DNA of 64,000 bases from positions 32,001-96,000 of IMG/VR virus record IMGVR_UViG_3300037245_001295. One strand, written 5' to 3'. The DNA is from a virus. Positions 445 through 62,072 of this stretch are shown here, piece by piece (positions within the stretch are counted from its first letter, which is position 1; every line of letters begins with the position of its first letter). The notes under the pieces are model-generated. The model was not told the DNA's origin, searched no databases, and was given only the letters and a program-made list of their open reading frames with translations. The position numbers were made by a program, and so were the translations under genes.

Positions 445-969
445 ATGTACACATACTACGGCACAATCGCGGACGCTGATGAATACTTCGACAACCGACT
501 CCACGAGGAGGCTTGGACGGATGCGTCTACGGATGATAGACGGAAGGCTTTGATCGCCGCCACTGTCATTATTGACGCACTCAACTACCGGGGTCAGAAG
601 GCCGCCGTTTACGATATTATGTACGACGACGATGGTATCCTATTGGATGTCACCGATGAAGAACTCAGAGACGCCGACTGGTCGCAGGACTTAGAGTTCC
701 CGCGAGACTCGGATGTTGATGTTCCAGAGGAGATCGAAATCGCCTCCTGGGAAATCGCCCACGCCCTTTTGGACGGGGTCGATCCTGACCTTGAACTTGA
801 AAATCTTGGAGTGGTCAGCCAAGGAATTGCGTCAGTCAGAACGACGTACAATCGGAATCACACGCAGGTTGAACACCTGATAAACGGGATTCCCAGTGCC
901 ACAGCGTGGAGGTACCTACGCCCCTTCCTGCGTGACAGTAGCGCAATTAAATTCAGTAGGGTAGACTAA
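445..969 (+). CDS. head-tail adaptor (DnaT_2-like family)
   Basis: Motif YGTIADADEYF..RL...W...KALIAAT..ID.L.Y.G...Q.LEFPR; GAGG RBS. Confidence 0.7.
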   Translation: MYTYYGTIADADEYFDNRLHEEAWTDASTDDRRKALIAATVIIDALNYRGQKAAVYDIMYDDDGILLDVTDEELRDADWSQDLEFPRDSDVDVPEEIEIASWEIAHALLDGVDPDLELENLGVVSQGIASVRTTYNRNHTQVEHLINGIPSATAWRYLRPFLRDSSAIKFSRVD

Positions 970-989
970 CACATGTTAGGAGAGTGACG

Positions 990-1937
990 ATGTCGAACGA
1001 CAAACTGTACAACTTGATCTGGACGAAGCCGACCCTGGCCTGCTACGAAGGCGATGGTGGAGACGGTGGAGATGGTGGAGATGGTGGAGATGGTGGTGGA
1101 GATGCTGGCGACCCTTTGGCCGACCGCGCGCAGGCCGCCCAAGCTGCTGCGGATCAAGCCCGCGATGATGCCGCTCGTGCAGCCGCAGATGCTCGGCTCG
1201 CTGCCGATGCCGCCCGTAAGGACTCTGAGAAAAGCTTTTCTCAGAAGGATTTGAATGCCTTCCTGGCCGAGGACAGACGCAAGCATCAGGAGAAGTACAC
1301 TAAACTGGAAGGCAGCATGAAGACGATGCTGGAAGACACGAATTTGCAAAAAGAGCAGCGAGCAAGGATTGAATCTGAGCTTCAGGATTTGCAGGCTTCT
1401 CAACGCACCGCTAAGCAGCAGGCTGAGTACGAGCGTAAGCAAGAGCGTGAGGAGTTTACCACGGAGGTGGAAAGCCTAAAAGATCAGGTCGGTCAGTGGG
1501 AAAGTTTGTACAAAACCTCTGTTGTTGACCGGTCGCTTCAGGATGCGGCCATTGCTCAGGGCGCATTTAACCCTTCGCAGATTATGGGGTTGCTCCGCCC
1601 GATGACTCGTATGCAGGAACAGACTGACGACAGTGGAAATCCGCTTGGTCAGTTCACGCCTATCATTGATTTCTCCGACATAAACGAAGCAAGCGGAGAG
1701 GAAGAAACCACACTAAGAACCCCCGAACAAGCTGTACAACGCATGAAGGAGTTGCCGCAACTTTACGGTAACCTCTTTCGCTCAAACGTTGTAAGTGGTA
1801 TCGGGTCAGGTTCCGCAACCGGCGGCGTCAAGTCGGGCGAAGGCCGTATTGATCCTACGAAGTTGACTGCTGAGCAGTATCGTAAGGTTCGCAGGGAAAA
1901 CCCAGAAGCCCTGGGCCTAAAGCGTCGAGACGTATAA
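990..1937 (+). CDS. capsid scaffolding protein
   Basis: AGGAGA RBS then ATG 990; GGD low-complexity linker; FSQKDLN motif and long coiled coil; immediately upstream of the capsid gene. Confidence 0.75.
   Translation: MSNDKLYNLIWTKPTLACYEGDGGDGGDGGDGGDGGGDAGDPLADRAQAAQAAADQARDDAARAAADARLAADAARKDSEKSFSQKDLNAFLAEDRRKHQEKYTKLEGSMKTMLEDTNLQKEQRARIESELQDLQASQRTAKQQAEYERKQEREEFTTEVESLKDQVGQWESLYKTSVVDRSLQDAAIAQGAFNPSQIMGLLRPMTRMQEQTDDSGNPLGQFTPIIDFSDINEASGEEETTLRTPEQAVQRMKELPQLYGNLFRSNVVSGIGSGSATGGVKSGEGRIDPTKLTAEQYRKVRRENPEALGLKRRDV
1053..1103 (+). repeat. 9-bp coding tandem repeat (GATGGTGGA) encoding Gly-Gly-Asp linker
   Basis: About 5 imperfect copies read directly. Confidence 0.85.
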
Positions 1938-2027
1938 AGAAAGGGGTCACGGCAATATCCAATGTAGGATATTGAACTGTTGTCACCGCCCAGTATGGGC
2001 AAAAGTAACCAATTAGGAGAAAGCACT

Positions 2028-3446
2028 ATGAATATGCTTTACAGCCACCCCGTCATGGCTTGTTATGCCAATGACAACGATGCGTTGATCCCGGAACTGT
2101 GGGCTCAGGAAGGTCTTGCCATTCTCGAAGAGAACATGGTCATGGCTCGTCTGGTCCACCGGGACTTCAGTAACGTAGTCGCCCAATTTGGCGACGTTGT
2201 GAACACACGTCGGCCCGGAACTTTCACGGCTAAGCGGAAGACCGACTCTGACAGTGTCACCAATCAGGATGCCGTCGCGACCAACGTGCAGGTTCCTCTG
2301 GATCAGCACGTCTACGTGTCCTTCACCATCAAGGATGGTGAGGCCAGCAAGTCCTTCCAGGACTTGGTCGAGATGTACCTGACGCCCGCCGCGCAGGAAA
2401 TCGCTAGCTCGGTTGACCGCATTCTGTGTGGTCAGGTCCATGAGTTCCTCACCAACAACGTTGGTCAACTTCAGACGATGGACTCCACGAATGCGAAGTC
2501 CTATCTGTTGGCCGCGCGTGAGAAGATGAACCAGAACAAGGCCTACGCCGGTGGACGGAACATGGTTCTTTCGCCTGCGTCGGAAACTGACCTTCTGGAA
2601 ACGGAACTGTTCGTCAGTGCTGAGAAGCGCGGCGACGATGGAACCGCTCTGCGTGAAGCCAGCCTGGGCCGTGTCTTTGGTTTCGATACCTACATGGACC
2701 AGAACATTCCGAGCCTCTTGCAGGCTAGCACGGACAACGCCCCTGGCGTACTCAATGGCGGTGAGCCTCTTGGCGAAACCGTCCTGGCCGTGACCATTCT
2801 GGCCTACACGGTCGTGGATGGTGAGTATGTCTGGATCGAAGGCGAAGGTAAGCCGCATGTCGTGTCGGCCGCCACGGATGACGCCACGGACACCAGCAGC
2901 ATCACGCTGGTCTCTGGCTTGACCGCAGCCGGCGTTGACACGAATGCAGTCGTCGTGTGGAAGTCGTGTCAAGTGGATGGCATTCATGCTTCCGGCTACT
3001 CGAAGGGCATCGCTCTTGACCTCTCGAACGCCGTGATGACAGAGCCGCCGCAGGTTGGCCAGTTGCTCGCGTTCGCGGAAGGTGCGAGTCGTCATGTGTA
3101 CACGATTATCGGCATCGCCGTTGATCCCGACGACGCAACCCGCCACTTGGCGTGGTTGGATCGCCCGCTGGCCGCAGCCTTGGCTGACAACGACATCGCG
3201 TTCCCCGGCCCGTCTGGTTCGTTCAACTTTGCGTTCCACCGCAATGCTCTCGCGCTCGTTACACGTCCGCTGGCTCTGCCGAATACCGCTCTTGGTGTCC
3301 GGTCGGCCGTTGGTGCGTACAACGACGTGGCCATGCGGGTTTCGATGCAGTACGACATCAGTGCCCAGGGCACGATCGTGACGGCTGACCTGCTCTGCGG
3401 AGTGGCTAAGCTGGATGCCAACCTCGGTTGCATCATGCTCGGATAA
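2028..3446 (+). CDS. major capsid protein, HK97 fold, P22-coat-like, with large insertion
   Basis: AGGAGA RBS; IPELWA..L..L...V; G.T V..R.P; G.LGRVFGFDTY; FHRNALAL.TRPL; D.L.G near C-terminus; followed by a terminator. Confidence 0.9.
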   Translation: MNMLYSHPVMACYANDNDALIPELWAQEGLAILEENMVMARLVHRDFSNVVAQFGDVVNTRRPGTFTAKRKTDSDSVTNQDAVATNVQVPLDQHVYVSFTIKDGEASKSFQDLVEMYLTPAAQEIASSVDRILCGQVHEFLTNNVGQLQTMDSTNAKSYLLAAREKMNQNKAYAGGRNMVLSPASETDLLETELFVSAEKRGDDGTALREASLGRVFGFDTYMDQNIPSLLQASTDNAPGVLNGGEPLGETVLAVTILAYTVVDGEYVWIEGEGKPHVVSAATDDATDTSSITLVSGLTAAGVDTNAVVVWKSCQVDGIHASGYSKGIALDLSNAVMTEPPQVGQLLAFAEGASRHVYTIIGIAVDPDDATRHLAWLDRPLAAALADNDIAFPGPSGSFNFAFHRNALALVTRPLALPNTALGVRSAVGAYNDVAMRVSMQYDISAQGTIVTADLLCGVAKLDANLGCIMLG

Positions 3447-3456
3447 ACCCCTTACC

Positions 3457-3497
3457 ACCGGGCGGGCGAAAGCTCGCCCGCCCGGTTTCTTTTGTTT
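3457..3497 (+). terminator. intrinsic terminator after capsid gene
   Basis: ACCGGGCGGGCGA-AAGC-TCGCCCGCCCGGT stem followed by a T-rich tract. Confidence 0.85.
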
Positions 3498-3510
3498 AAG
3501 GGGGCGTCCC

Positions 3511-3834
3511 ATGGAAATACTTTTTGCAGCAGCAGGTTCGGAAATGCTGACAGAATTACTCGCCAACTTTGGTCCTCTTGTCGGCATTGTGCTGTTTTTC
3601 ATTTGGCGCGATTGGAAACGAGAAGACGCGCTTTCCACAAGAGTTGAAAAACTCGAAGACTACCAGCGAGACACTTTGTTCAGTCTGGTAGAACGGTCTA
3701 CAACAGCTTTGGCCCAAAACGCAGAATGTCTGAGTTGGGTTGCACACGTAATGGAGCGGCTCTGTAACCGCTGTCCATACATCGAAGCAAGTGACGCACC
3801 TGAAGGAGTCAGAGATGTTGAGCGGCGTAAATAG
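3511..3834 (+). CDS. small membrane protein, BhlA/UviB holin-like
   Basis: One TM segment (FGPLVGIVLFFIW) followed by RD.KRE and a coiled coil. Confidence 0.5.
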   Translation: MEILFAAAGSEMLTELLANFGPLVGIVLFFIWRDWKREDALSTRVEKLEDYQRDTLFSLVERSTTALAQNAECLSWVAHVMERLCNRCPYIEASDAPEGVRDVERRK

Positions 3835-5503
3835 AAGTATGAACCGCTTTCTTCGGAGAACGCTGTACAGCCTCAAGAGGCAGTACGGTGGGCGGGTCGA
3901 TGTGTACCAACTTGGAAGCACCGACACGGATTACGAGACTGGCGACAAGACATACACCCGATCAATGATTACGGTGCCTAAATGTATTGTGTTGCCTGTT
4001 AAAATCCAACGCGAGGCTGTGCAGTCGATCTCCGTAATATCAGCAAACAAAACATTCGTCTATGGTGGGACGTATGATGCGGGAACACGGATGTTTATCA
4101 TTGATGCTCGTGACTTGCCCAACGACTATGAAATCGTCAACGACGATTGGTTGGTCTATGATAACCGTCGTTACGACATCAAAGACATCACTGAGTTTGA
4201 GCAACACACAGGTTGGATAATCACCGGACGTGAAGTCAAGGGTGTTCGACCTGAGCAGATTTTCAAGGTCAACAGTGAAAATATCATGGAGGTTGAGAGC
4301 AGCGTCTTTGGTGAGGTCGGCCCAGTCGTCGCGGAGAATCCCGCCAGTGCTGCGGCAATCTTGCAAGCAGTGGTGGCAGTTATGGAGCGTTCGGTCGCGC
4401 CGTCCAGTACGGCTAGCATGTCGCAAGAAGTTGAGGCGACTTTAGTTGGCGGTGCTTGTGCCGGTGTTGCCTGGGCTAACGTAGGTGCTGCTTACTGGTC
4501 TGGGTATCAATCCTGTATCAATGCGACGAAGGACCAAAGTGGGTCAGACTCAACAGCTACTTTTGGCAGTCTTGCAGGGTCGTCTAAGTGGTGGGGCGGT
4601 GTTCTCGCACCCAATGGTTTTATCTATGGGGTGCCGTTTGTCAGTACCTCGGTGCTTAAAATCAATCCAAGTACGAACGGTGCTACCACCTTTGGAAGTC
4701 TCGCAGGGTCAACTAAGTGGGTGGGCGGGGTTTTAGCCCCTAATGGCTTCATCTACGGCATCCCATTCAGCAGCACCACCGTGCTTAAACTCAACCCGAG
4801 TGACGATTCAACTTCAACGTTCGGCACAGTCTCAAATGGTCCATATTACAGCGGAGTGTTGGCTGGCAACGGATGTATCTACTGTGTGCCAAACAACGGT
4901 ACAACAGTGTTGAAGATTGATACGAGCAACGATACTGTTGACGAAATCGGCTCGCTGCCCGCCACGTCTTCCAAGTGGAGAGGTGCCGTGCTAGGTGCAA
5001 ATGGGATGGTTTATGGGATACCTGGAAGCAGCACCACGATCTTGAAGATAAACCCAAGTAACGATAGTATATCTGAATTTGGAAGTCTGAGCGGAACCAA
5101 TAAATGGGTGGGTGGCGTCTTGGCACCTAATGGCCACATCTACGGGATACCATTCGATAGTACCCAAGTGCTAAAGATTGATACTACCTCAGACACCCCA
5201 ACAGTCTTTGGGAGTTTGTCAGGAAGTAATAAATGGCGGGGCGGTGTCTTAGCTCCCAATGGTTTCATTTATGGGGTGCCTCGCGACAGCACTTCAATCC
5301 TCAAGATTGATCCCTCGGGCGATACTGCCGGTACCTTTGGAAGTTTCCCAGGTGCTAGCGACTGGGCCGGTGGAATTTTGGCCCCTAATGGACACCTTTA
5401 CTGTATTCCATACTCAAATACAACTGTACTTAGGATTGAGCCTGACAGCGCCTCAGAGTTTACGGATGACGTGATCCAATCGGCTTACTTCAACAAATTT
5501 TAA
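3815..5503 (+). CDS. head-closure-like N-domain fused to a 7-bladed beta-propeller
   Basis: AAGGAG RBS then ATG 3815; N-terminal ~150 aa resembles stopper proteins (DYETG, DWLVYDNRRYDI); 7 repeats of FGSL.G..KW.GGVLAPNG.IYG.P.....LKI.P. Confidence 0.7.
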   Translation: MLSGVNRSMNRFLRRTLYSLKRQYGGRVDVYQLGSTDTDYETGDKTYTRSMITVPKCIVLPVKIQREAVQSISVISANKTFVYGGTYDAGTRMFIIDARDLPNDYEIVNDDWLVYDNRRYDIKDITEFEQHTGWIITGREVKGVRPEQIFKVNSENIMEVESSVFGEVGPVVAENPASAAAILQAVVAVMERSVAPSSTASMSQEVEATLVGGACAGVAWANVGAAYWSGYQSCINATKDQSGSDSTATFGSLAGSSKWWGGVLAPNGFIYGVPFVSTSVLKINPSTNGATTFGSLAGSTKWVGGVLAPNGFIYGIPFSSTTVLKLNPSDDSTSTFGTVSNGPYYSGVLAGNGCIYCVPNNGTTVLKIDTSNDTVDEIGSLPATSSKWRGAVLGANGMVYGIPGSSTTILKINPSNDSISEFGSLSGTNKWVGGVLAPNGHIYGIPFDSTQVLKIDTTSDTPTVFGSLSGSNKWRGGVLAPNGFIYGVPRDSTSILKIDPSGDTAGTFGSFPGASDWAGGILAPNGHLYCIPYSNTTVLRIEPDSASEFTDDVIQSAYFNKF

Positions 5504-59607: not shown

Positions 59608-60052
59608 TAATCAATGCAAAAGTGATCCCAGAAGTCACGCCGCCTAACACGGTGTACGTGAGATTGGGCGACGGAAACATACCTTATGAGGAGAAACCGA
59701 TGAAAGAACCTATGACAATTTGTACTAAATGCCAGCATGTGAAGATCACTGGGAGAAGCTCCGTGTGGACCAGATTTGAGTGCTACGCAAGTATCATTAT
59801 CGACGGGGTAAATCCAGTCACAGGGGAGCCGCAAGATACAGTGCTTGCAAAGTGCCACAACAGAAACACAGGCGACTGCAAACTGTATGAGGAAGCGCGA
59901 TGAAAATGTTCAGCGAATGTAGTGGACCGTGTGAGACCTGTAAAGTGCATCTTTCCGGCACCATGTGCATGGCCGGGCACGGCGACGACGACTATGTCCA
60001 CGCGGACGTGGAGTGGATTGCAGCCTTGAAGCAAAAGGAAGCGAATGGATAA
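59598..60052 (+). other. two small Cys-containing ORFs (59598-59903, 59900-60052)
   Basis: Coupled; the second reads MKMFSECSGPCETC...CMAGHGDDD. Confidence 0.5.
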
Positions 60053-60452
60053 TCCTCACATGCGAGAAGCGCACGGCCCTGAGTGGCGAATCCAGAAGGA
60101 ACTAATCAAGTTCCTGCGGGCTCGCGGCTGGCTTGTTGAGGTTATGCACGGTAACCTATTCCAAAAAGGCGTGCCTGACTTGTACATCGCCCACCCGAAG
60201 CATGGGCAGAGGTGGATTGACGTTAAGAACCCCGTCAGCTACAACTTCACAAGAGACCAGAGGATTAAGTGGCCCAACTGGGAGAAATACGGAGTCGGAA
60301 TCTGGATACTCGTGGCCGCCACGGACGAAGAGTATGACAAGTTGTGGAAGCCGCCCAACATGCGCGATTACTGGAAGGCCAGTTGGTACTTGGAGCCCAC
60401 TGTGGACGACCTTCTGGACGAACTAGATGACCCAACACTGGAGGAAGAGTGA
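60045..60452 (+). CDS. VRR-NUC / PD-(D/E)XK nuclease
   Basis: E..IQ..L..FL..RGW, G.PDL, WIDVK, T..Q. Confidence 0.75.
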   Translation: MDNPHMREAHGPEWRIQKELIKFLRARGWLVEVMHGNLFQKGVPDLYIAHPKHGQRWIDVKNPVSYNFTRDQRIKWPNWEKYGVGIWILVAATDEEYDKLWKPPNMRDYWKASWYLEPTVDDLLDELDDPTLEEE

Positions 60453-60661
60453 TGGCAGTGCAACCTTGCACACGCGATGGAAAGCCGGGTTACCGGGCGA
60501 TCAGCCCGCACGGTGAAGGGGATTGTTTCCTGTACCGAGACGGCGACCCTGGTGGCCAGGCGCGGGCAAAGGCATTTGCCCGACAGCAGCTTGTCACAAT
60601 CACAGCCCGGTCAAACGACGAAAATATTCAAGCAGTGATCGAATCAATCGAGTGCATTTAG
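60449..60661 (+). CDS. small protein, paralog of next gene
   Basis: C..DGKPGY...G.C..Y. Confidence 0.55.
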   Translation: MMAVQPCTRDGKPGYRAISPHGEGDCFLYRDGDPGGQARAKAFARQQLVTITARSNDENIQAVIESIECI

Positions 60662-60670
60662 GAGACTGCG

Positions 60671-60841
60671 ATGCCTATTCAAGTTTGCTCTAAAGACGGC
60701 GACCCCGGCTATAAGTACGGTGAGGGGGGCTTCTGCTACACCTACAAGGGTGGAGACGAAGCGGGGCGTAGGGAAGCGAAGCAGAAGGCAGCGATGCAAG
60801 GCGCAGCAATCGAGCGTCGAGGCGGGGAGTCCCACGAATGA
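60671..60841 (+). CDS. small protein (56 aa)
   Basis: AGGAG RBS; MPIQVCSKDGDPGYKYGEGGFCYTY...KAAMQGAAI. Confidence 0.6.
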   Translation: MPIQVCSKDGDPGYKYGEGGFCYTYKGGDEAGRREAKQKAAMQGAAIERRGGESHE

Positions 60842-61365
60842 TCCTCCGTAGCAACCCAAACAATTGGTCATGTCTCCCCACCGCATTCGCGATGGCACTT
60901 GGGCGGGTTCCTGAGTGGGTAATTGAACAGATTGGACACAATGGCAGTGCTGAACCCTATAAGGCGGCGGGCCTTAAAGCGGGCTTCCACGAGCAGGAGT
61001 GCATTGAAGTTGCCCTGGGCTTGGGTTACACTTGCACACCTATTGAAGCCGTGCCGACCATTTCTCCGTACCAGCACGGAGGGGACGCACGACCCGTCTA
61101 TTTTGGGGAGGGGTTGTCCGGCAATTTTGAGGCGGGGGTGTCCGGCAATTGGGTACGTTTGTTGCGGCACATGGTTGGTACTTGCGGTGTTCTGACTGGC
61201 ACGTATGCAAAGCTCACCGATCCCACCTGTGTTCGTGGCCACGCTGTCGCCTGGGACGGTGTGACAACACAGAAGATTCACGATCCAATCGGCCCCCGCT
61301 GCTACTCGTTTGTGGAGGCTGCTAAATACGGATTCACCCCTGGATGCTTTTGGAAGGTGGAATAA
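60838..61365 (+). CDS. putative papain-like (C39-type) cysteine peptidase
   Basis: N-terminal SCLPTAFAMAL Cys; GHAVAW His; IHDP Asp. Confidence 0.6.
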   Translation: MILRSNPNNWSCLPTAFAMALGRVPEWVIEQIGHNGSAEPYKAAGLKAGFHEQECIEVALGLGYTCTPIEAVPTISPYQHGGDARPVYFGEGLSGNFEAGVSGNWVRLLRHMVGTCGVLTGTYAKLTDPTCVRGHAVAWDGVTTQKIHDPIGPRCYSFVEAAKYGFTPGCFWKVE

Positions 61366-62072
61366 TGTCAAAGTGTATGGTTAGGCTCACACCGAGCCAA
61401 CTGACGAGCGTCTCTGTTATACATCCATTGCTGTACGTGACAGATGGGCCTCTCGATGAAGAACAACTTAGCGAGCTAGTACCACTAGCGTTGGAAGGGG
61501 ATGAATATGCACGGAACGAGTTAGTAGTTGGCCACCTATCAATGCTGAGCCACACGGTTGGTCGTTACCTTTACCACTGGCCCTTAACCCGGCGATTCCT
61601 TGACGAGATGGTGTCGGCGGGCGTGTTCGGAATGGTGCATGCCTTGCAGATTCTTAACGAAGAGTCATTGGAAGGTAAGACCATCGGTACGTATCTACTC
61701 CAGCATATCTACAAGCACATAGAAACTGAAGTCTGCGCATTGCGGGGCATAGCCCCCGCCCCGATACGTACAAATCAAAGGCGTGTGAAAGAGGGCCTCG
61801 ATCCAATTTTCGGGGACGTTGTTGGCGACACAGCTTCCTCAAAACTGACGGATGGGTACAGTTATATCGAGTCCGGCTTTGAGGAGATTGACGTGCTTGA
61901 GGCCCTTAACCTTCTGCGGGACGAATTTGAGCTTTTGGACCTCATCTTCGAGCCTGAGAATTGGGGTAAGACTAATCGCGAACTGTCGGACCTCACCGGA
62001 GTACCAAGGCGAACTGTCCATTGGTACCGAACAGAGCTACTACGACGCTACCAAGAATTGACTGACAAGTAA
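61365..62072 (+). CDS. sigma-70-like RNA polymerase sigma factor
   Basis: GDEYARNELV..HL......RY; DEMVS.G..G...A (region 2); TNRELSDLTGVPRRTV HTH (region 4). Confidence 0.7.
   Translation: MSKCMVRLTPSQLTSVSVIHPLLYVTDGPLDEEQLSELVPLALEGDEYARNELVVGHLSMLSHTVGRYLYHWPLTRRFLDEMVSAGVFGMVHALQILNEESLEGKTIGTYLLQHIYKHIETEVCALRGIAPAPIRTNQRRVKEGLDPIFGDVVGDTASSKLTDGYSYIESGFEEIDVLEALNLLRDEFELLDLIFEPENWGKTNRELSDLTGVPRRTVHWYRTELLRRYQELTDK

Follow-up and report, generated by a model that had tools for sequence, protein, structure and literature searches.

A matched N-terminal leader on the scaffolding and coat proteins of an uncultured phage clade, and a candidate peptidase for its proposed removal

Introduction

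Canonical prohead proteases are serine proteases; their genes lie in the head module, and the enzymes are packaged into the prohead. The removal of a leader shared by the scaffolding and coat proteins during head maturation is, to our knowledge, known from one experimental system, that of staphylococcal phage 80alpha; there, a host ribosomal protease performs the cut, and the purpose of the step is unclear. According to the primary report, the 80alpha capsid and scaffold leaders comprise 13–14 residues and are cut between Phe and Ala; cleavage is dispensable, the scaffold leader is required for assembly, and its authors suggest that the leader engages a common chaperone or has a regulatory role (PMC5744158). 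Here, we examine a pair of leaders on the scaffold and the major capsid protein of an uncultured phage. The DNA under study, which we call “the window,” is a stretch of 64,000 nucleotides, i.e., bases 32001–96000 of the 124,740-bp virus record IMGVR_UViG_3300037245_001295. We favor the view, with a probability of roughly 0.55, that the two leaders constitute one discrete module that is read by a single partner, most likely as a propeptide that is cut after a Tyr or Phe residue.

Results and discussion

The scaffold and the coat protein begin with the same leader

The window’s major capsid protein (472 aa; 2028..3446, + strand) belongs to the P22-type coat family, as it matched Pfam PF11651 with an E value of 1.2e-36 (126.8 bits, against a cut-off of 24) and PHROG 283 (major head protein) with an E value of 3.4e-61. 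The 315-aa scaffolding protein (990..1937, + strand), for which Pfam and PHROG searches returned no family, was named from its position and composition. It consists of the leader, an acidic Gly/Asp linker, a long middle part, and a basic C-terminus, and its slot between the adaptor and coat genes is kept in 44 of 50 related loci.

The initial annotation of the window claimed that these two proteins share a 12-residue leader. The leader is real, and it lies exactly at 990–1046 and 2028–2066. From the ATG at 990, the scaffold opens with MSNDKLY-NLIWTKPTLACY-EGDGGDGG; from the ATG at 2028, the capsid protein opens with M-NMLYSHPVMACY-ANDNDALIPELWA. The scaffold leader comprises residues 1–19 (MSNDKLYNLIWTKPTLACY; 990..1046, + strand), with the shared 12-mer at 1011–1046 and a predicted cut after Tyr19, and the capsid leader comprises residues 1–13 (MNMLYSHPVMACY; 2028..2066, + strand), with a predicted cut after Tyr13. 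The two 12-mers agree at five positions (N, P, A, C, and Y), as had been claimed, and the other seven scaffold/capsid pairs (L/M, I/L, W/Y, T/S, K/H, T/V, and L/M) are mostly conservative. Besides the leader, no other likeness between the two proteins is evident. By direct reading, a Shine-Dalgarno sequence (AGGAG) is located 7 nt 5' of the scaffold ATG (978..982, + strand) and another (AGGAG) 8 nt 5' of the capsid ATG (2015..2019, + strand); the former identifies 990 as the scaffold start and thus indicates that the leader is translated.

Could such a likeness, with only five identities in 12 positions when the window is considered by itself, arise by chance? We ranked pairs of N-termini using the first 30 residues of this genome’s open reading frames (ORFs). 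The ungapped BLOSUM62 score of the two 12-mers was 41, which placed them second among 16,290 pairs (mean 10.0, standard deviation 4.75); the single higher-scoring pair and the next ones were adjacent ORFs, which we took to be paralogues. A six-frame translation of the whole record contained the strict motif only at these two sites. Moreover, the last 10 positions include four identical residues with degenerate codons, and the two genes use different codons for all of them; the likeness of the leaders in the window is therefore one at the protein level.

The leader is present throughout a clade of related phages

A capsid search of a viral contig collection yielded 50 loci (83–40% identity), which have the same gene order of portal, adaptor, scaffold, and capsid. 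The leader is found on both the capsid and the scaffold wherever their N-termini lie on the contig, i.e., in 41 loci including the window, representing 35 distinct pairs. In five of the 50 loci (L004, L018, L043, L050, and L051), a contig edge or an interruption of the gene removes the capsid N-terminus, and a further five have no scaffold N-terminus (L006, L022, L029, L031, and L041). All 10 of the additional contigs that were found via the peptidase described below also carry both leaders, as do 10 of 13 parsable loci in planctomycete genomes; out of 22 genome loci, nine were not parsed by the anchor pattern, and among the 13 that were, two had truncated capsid ORFs and one had no scaffold N-terminus. 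Cultured relatives are remote: a nucleotide search found none, and the identities did not exceed 36% for the capsid and 25% for the terminase.

In every one of the 35 pairs, the last residue of the leader (P1) is Tyr or Phe. The preceding residue (P2) is Cys on both proteins in 28 of the 35 pairs, and this Cys is kept or lost jointly in 33. After the leader, position P1' is occupied in the capsid by Ala (30), Asp (3), or Val (2) and in the scaffold by Glu (17), Asp (16), or Gly (2). The remainder of the leader is highly variable between phages and covaries within the two proteins of one phage. For example, one phage has ...YLNPVVSLY on both proteins, and others pair ...FVIANARPVAF with ...YVIANAKVAAF, ...AVFPCY with ...VLFPCY, or ...QAQFACF with ...RAQFSCF. 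In six whole genomes of the clade, the phage’s own leader occurs only on the capsid and the scaffold; the next-best matches had about half the score and fell in short, spurious frames.

The two leader copies evolve in concert

Over the last 10 residues, cognate leaders had a score of 31.9, vs. 15.4 for non-cognate ones; for positions −4 to −10, the respective scores were 15.6 and 3.4. Not one of 100,000 pairing shuffles attained the observed score for either segment. Likewise, the leaders of the capsid and scaffold from the same locus are 57% identical, whereas the between-locus identities are 35% (capsid–capsid) and 28% (scaffold–scaffold). Because cognate pairs are more alike than non-cognate ones, the leaders must have evolved in concert; independent drift from a common ancestor cannot yield that pattern. 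At the level of the sequences compared, these patterns show joint selection on the two copies.

Mechanisms that would copy or mimic the leader without such selection fare poorly. The identical degenerate residues are encoded by different codons in 110 of 195 cases, rendering recent gene conversion unlikely, and this figure, the results of the shuffles, and the rank of the window’s pair all speak against chance, a duplicated 5' end, or a signal at the RNA level. A lipoprotein signal deserves mention, as V-M-A-C and T-L-A-C resemble a lipobox (...A-C). However, the Cys is missing on at least one side in seven of the 35 pairs and in several further contigs, the capsid leaders vary from 8 to 17 residues, and the leaders have neither a basic n-region nor a long hydrophobic core. 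We regard all of these explanations, taken together, as highly improbable.

The leader is also sharply bounded. Among 33 capsids, it is 35% identical, vs. 74% for the approximately 36 residues that follow. Position 2 of the PHROG 283 profile aligns with capsid residue 14, directly after Cys-Tyr, and leaderless cultured coats of the same family start there: that of Streptomyces phage Keanu begins with VANTF... and that of Arthrobacter phage JasmineDragon with MANDF.... The scaffolds of these two phages start with MA followed by acidic or Pro-rich sequence. From the profile alignment and these starting points, we conclude that the leader is an addition before residue 2 in both proteins. The same evidence upholds the earlier proposal that a cut after Ala-Cys-Tyr would expose a normal coat N-terminus. 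In the AF2 model of the capsid protein, residues 1–55 have pLDDT values below 50, and the conformation of the leader therefore cannot be read from it.

A propeptide is the favored interpretation of the leader

We favor a propeptide on account of the sharply defined boundary, the aromatic residue that never varies, the small or acidic residue that follows it, and the starting points of leaderless relatives. The 12–19 N-terminal residues would represent a leader module that was added before residue 2 of the leaderless proteins. A single common partner would read both copies, which would keep them matched while the leader drifts. An endopeptidase would cut after the invariant Tyr or Phe of both leaders, thereby freeing a coat protein that starts with A/D-N-D...IPE.WA and a scaffold that starts with an acidic Glu/Asp-Gly linker. 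The favored enzyme for this reaction is a papain-fold cysteine peptidase of the clade itself (60838–61365), which may act in the manner of a bacteriocin or RiPP (ribosomally synthesized and post-translationally modified peptide) leader peptidase and would use an aromatic P1 residue instead of Gly-Gly. Both the cleavage and the identity of the enzyme are things that we infer. We judge the chances that the leader is cleaved to be somewhat better than even; our assignment of the enzyme is tentative, the link being circumstantial.

The main rival to a propeptide is an assembly tag that is never cut: the leader would remain on either or both of the proteins, where a chaperone, the portal, or another assembly factor could use it as a common handle. 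In a variant of this idea, which shares in its probability, the two leaders would associate, for example as in-register strands or via their frequent Cys residues, and so couple the folding or co-assembly of scaffold and coat. Concerted evolution requires only a common partner or mutual pairing, with no cut; the joint retention or loss of the P2 Cys fits such a role, and the leader is tied to no protease so far. The precedent of 80alpha points the same way, for the scaffold leader is needed there and its cleavage is not, and a common chaperone or regulatory role has been proposed (PMC5744158); the main job of the present leader could accordingly differ from being cut. A tag would not, on the other hand, readily account for the finding that two unrelated proteins both have an invariant aromatic residue exactly at the module boundary, with small or acidic residues next to it, nor for a module placed precisely before residue 2 of the leaderless relatives. 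A hydrophobic 12-mer retained on every subunit of a P22-type coat would also be unusual. An uncut tag thus seems to us possible, though not probable.

The hosts are likely Planctomycetota and lack the 80alpha route

The conserved N-arm of the capsid was used to search one genome per prokaryotic species, giving the 22 genome loci noted above. Fourteen of them are in genomes named as lineages of Planctomycetota (Thermoguttaceae, Planctomycetaceae, Pirellulales, and Aureliella), and these include seven of the eight contigs longer than 400 kb. Judging from these genome assignments, the hosts are likely Planctomycetota. The elements in the genomes are prophage-like, and one Thermoguttaceae chromosome has the full collinear gene set with three capsid copies. 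The three related elements of this chromosome (G022:C1) are located at about 1.47–1.53, 2.17–2.20, and 2.69–2.72 Mb, and each has a capsid and a peptidase gene. Of another element, G023:C1 at about 1.29–1.32 Mb, just the structural half remains, from terminase to tail, and its head genes are intact; it may represent either a prophage in decay or an element domesticated to form particles. We found no host flanks for G007, which is labeled a provirus and is collinear with the phage along almost its entire length.

Does the 80alpha mechanism proper, in which the leader imitates the extended N-terminus of L27 from the host and is cut by host Prp, operate here? The architecture is the same, with a leader of about 13 residues, an aromatic P1 residue, and Ala at the capsid P1' position. 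In five of five candidate Planctomycetota host genomes, however, L27 starts with M-AHKKGQGS and has no extension. Prp (PF04327) was found in none of these five genomes and was not found in the phage genome; the controls were positive in Bacillus, Lactococcus, and Thermotoga. The L27 motif cut by Prp is MLxx(D/N)LQ(F/L)F'A(S/H)KK (PMC9405229), and the present leader is unlike it. With a short L27, no Prp, and a different motif, the 80alpha mechanism proper is excluded for practical purposes, and a route through a host ribosomal protease like that of 80alpha is not supported.

A papain-fold peptidase is the candidate enzyme

The candidate leader peptidase is a stand-alone, 175-aa cysteine peptidase (60838..61365, + strand). 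Residues C12, H34, and H135 are invariant among 58 homologues, and the AF2 model (pLDDT 79) has a papain fold. It fell into no Pfam or PHROG family, and the genome has no match to PF03412 or PF13529. None of the 58 homologues passed a Pfam model; one reached an E value of 0.051 for PF13529. The best structural matches (Foldseek, VIA) were LahT150 (Z 11.4), PCAT1 (11.3), and ComA (11.2), with root-mean-square deviations of 2.4–2.9 Å over 117–123 residues. PeiR (Z 11.1) and the staphopains (10.5–10.7) are within one Z unit of these top C39 matches, and the C39 assignment therefore denotes a fold neighborhood only. A protein atlas placed the peptidase near viral clusters, an IpaJ-protease cluster, and, by structure, C39, C47, and C10. 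The initial annotation had called this protein a C39-like peptidase. That label holds for the fold, which is nearest to that of C39 leader peptidases, and the gene is a core gene of the clade; by sequence, the protein is not a C39 peptidase.

The gene is present in all three complete and both large partial relatives and in two of five smaller fragments, among them the contig whose leader-bearing capsid is the most distant. For three planctomycete genomes, 29–46 kb separate it from each capsid, and in one of them it accompanies each of the three prophage capsids. All 10 contigs that were found via the peptidase have a leader-bearing capsid, and no match to it was found in 50,697 cultured phage records.

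Several observations weigh against assigning the cut to this enzyme. The gene lies within the replication region, at a distance of 58 kb from the head genes, and no Pfam peptidase model matches its product. At position 4, the window’s peptidase has Arg, whereas five of six aligned clade copies have Gln. The co-occurrence of peptidase and leader spans the whole clade, and any core gene would show the same. Leader divergence follows capsid divergence (r 0.76); given the capsid, leader and peptidase divergence had a partial r of 0.05, a value reached by 1688 of 5000 permutations in a partial Mantel test of 18 genomes that is low-powered and crude. The G023 element retains an intact leader-bearing capsid and scaffold and has no peptidase, the whole replication half having been lost as well. 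A complex prediction of the peptidase with the capsid N-terminus (score 0.02, mark 0.32) carries no weight for or against binding.

These same points (the distance to the head genes, the null co-divergence test, and the leaders kept by G023) would suit cutting of the leader by some host protease apart from Prp or by a different phage protein, and the host enzyme of 80alpha supplies a precedent. Yet the candidate hosts lack Prp and a long L27, and the rapid divergence of the leader (35% identity) is more in keeping with a phage partner that evolves quickly than with a host enzyme that is conserved. Nor did the core ORFs that were scanned contain another protease-like gene. The families PF04586 (S78), PF00574 (ClpP/S14), and PF01343 (S49) had no match in six complete clade genomes; PF03420 (S77) had none either, but its control was likewise silent. 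About 39 ORFs are common to at least four of five large relatives, and Pfam scans of those whose role is not obvious returned nucleases, ParB, ligases, a methylase, a deaminase, and a GNAT, and no peptidase. Cleavage by such another protease appears to us unlikely. We return, then, to the peptidase at 60838 as the preferred, if tentative, enzyme. The broader proposition is that a papain-fold, C39-like cysteine peptidase whose gene is remote from the head genes matures the heads of the whole planctomycete phage clade, removing a coevolving leader that ends in Tyr or Phe from the scaffold as well as the coat protein; we consider this conjecture doubtful on present evidence.

A Tat-signal papain-like protein encoded 5' of the terminase (genome 25951–26985) was considered as a leader peptidase and rejected, as it is present in only two of five relatives and looks exported. 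It has the motifs QTIGDC, WYHAM, and NSWG and no Pfam hit, and it adjoins a thioredoxin-domain protein outside the window (L053:9951–11523; genome 25951–27523). The GNAT acetyltransferase, also outside the window (L093:2361–2894; genome 98361–98894), is common to four of the five large relatives.

In its neighborhood (window 60045–62072; L054–L058), the candidate peptidase gene is always 3' of the gene for a small, highly conserved protein with 63–71% identity between genomes, and its downstream neighbor is a 242-aa protein here and a 240–270-aa protein in the loci inspected. By eye, the upstream neighbor resembles a PD-(D/E)xK or VRR-NUC-like nuclease and the downstream one a sigma factor; both are without a Pfam hit.

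Other genes of the head module

Upstream of the capsid gene are found, in order, the large terminase, the portal (PHROG), a 116-aa ORF, the head-tail adaptor, and the scaffold. The adaptor (445..969, + strand) was identified by PHROG 477 (adaptor Ad1, E 5.7e-14) and Pfam PF20557. It occupies a slot often held by a prohead protease and is kept between the portal and scaffold wherever related contigs extend that far. The initial annotation had noted no prohead protease among the adaptor, scaffold, and capsid; Pfam, PHROG, and the related loci agree, and the statement can be extended to the portal. The 116-aa ORF between the portal and adaptor (59–409) was considered and rejected, given that it has no Pfam or PHROG family, contains no Cys, and is kept in position in only two of 50 loci. 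This is a variable slot, and weaker copies of its ORF occur elsewhere in L032, L047, and L037.

Directly 3' of the capsid gene, a small ORF (3415–3834) whose position is kept in most related loci encodes the hydrophobic stretch FGPLVGIVLFFIW; its product may be a membrane protein within the head module. It is followed by a 570-aa protein (3791–5503) with a clade-conserved N-terminal segment of about 165 residues and then variable DUF6923 repeats, which may be a head fiber or decoration protein with swappable binding repeats. Two more DUF6923 proteins are encoded 5' of the terminase (L053:6353–7480 and L053:7730–8872). In L013, L004, and L050, an interruption of the capsid gene immediately follows ...LEENMV (about codon 38). 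The insert in L013 (4121–5051) is approximately 0.9 kb long and contains a Cys/His-rich ORF of 283 aa that, to our eye, resembles a homing enzyme of the HNH or endonuclease-VII type; the capsid frame picks up at ...ARLVHRDF. The insert may be an intron or homing element at a conserved capsid site.

Significance and comparison with known systems

The present leader extends the design known from 80alpha to an unrelated, uncultured clade of Planctomycetota phages and prophages, with a different tag and no Prp or long L27. The matching of a fast-drifting leader within each genome is the clearest sequence evidence so far for one common reading partner. If the peptidase at 60838 does mature the heads, capsid assembly would have taken over a bacteriocin-style leader-peptide system, and the phage prohead proteases would gain a new class of enzyme. 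In the portions of the literature available to us, we found no description of a papain-like or C39 peptidase that acts on capsid or scaffold leaders and nothing on these planctomycete phages or such a leader.

With the canonical prohead proteases (HK97-type S78, ClpP/S14- and S49-like enzymes, and T4 gp21 of family S77) and with the capsid-targeting leaders of T4, the proposed system would share the trimming of head proteins at a short common motif during maturation. It differs from them in that the S78, ClpP, and S49 families are absent from all six complete clade genomes. The peptidase resembles the double-glycine leader peptidases of family C39 (the ComA peptidase domain, PCAT1, and LahT150), which remove short N-terminal leaders, in its fold, its N-terminal Cys, and its distal His. 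Unlike them, it has no Pfam C39 match, stands alone, looks cytoplasmic, and is not fused to an ABC transporter. C39 leaders end in Gly-Gly (or Gly-Ala/Ser), whereas the putative substrates here end in [C/V/A/L/F]-[Y/F]. The enzyme is thus a relative of C39 peptidases in fold and not a member of the family by sequence or substrate motif.

The closest parallel is with the capsid and scaffold leaders of 80alpha. Both systems have a shared N-terminal leader of about 13 residues on a scaffold and a coat protein that are otherwise dissimilar (PMC5744158; PMC9405229). Both also have an aromatic residue before the cut and Ala after it in the coat, no prohead protease in the head module, and exactly two phage substrates. 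Against these likenesses stand a motif of ...P..AC[YF] here vs. LNLQ[FH]F in 80alpha, a P22-type (PF11651) coat, and Planctomycetota phages whose hosts have an unextended L27 and no Prp. Furthermore, the leader described here diverges strongly between relatives and yet is matched within each phage, and its cleavage is a prediction. The system would work like that of 80alpha but is not a member of it, since L27 mimicry and Prp, the two defining features, were looked for and are absent; what is new here is the tag, the host phylum, and the candidate enzyme class.

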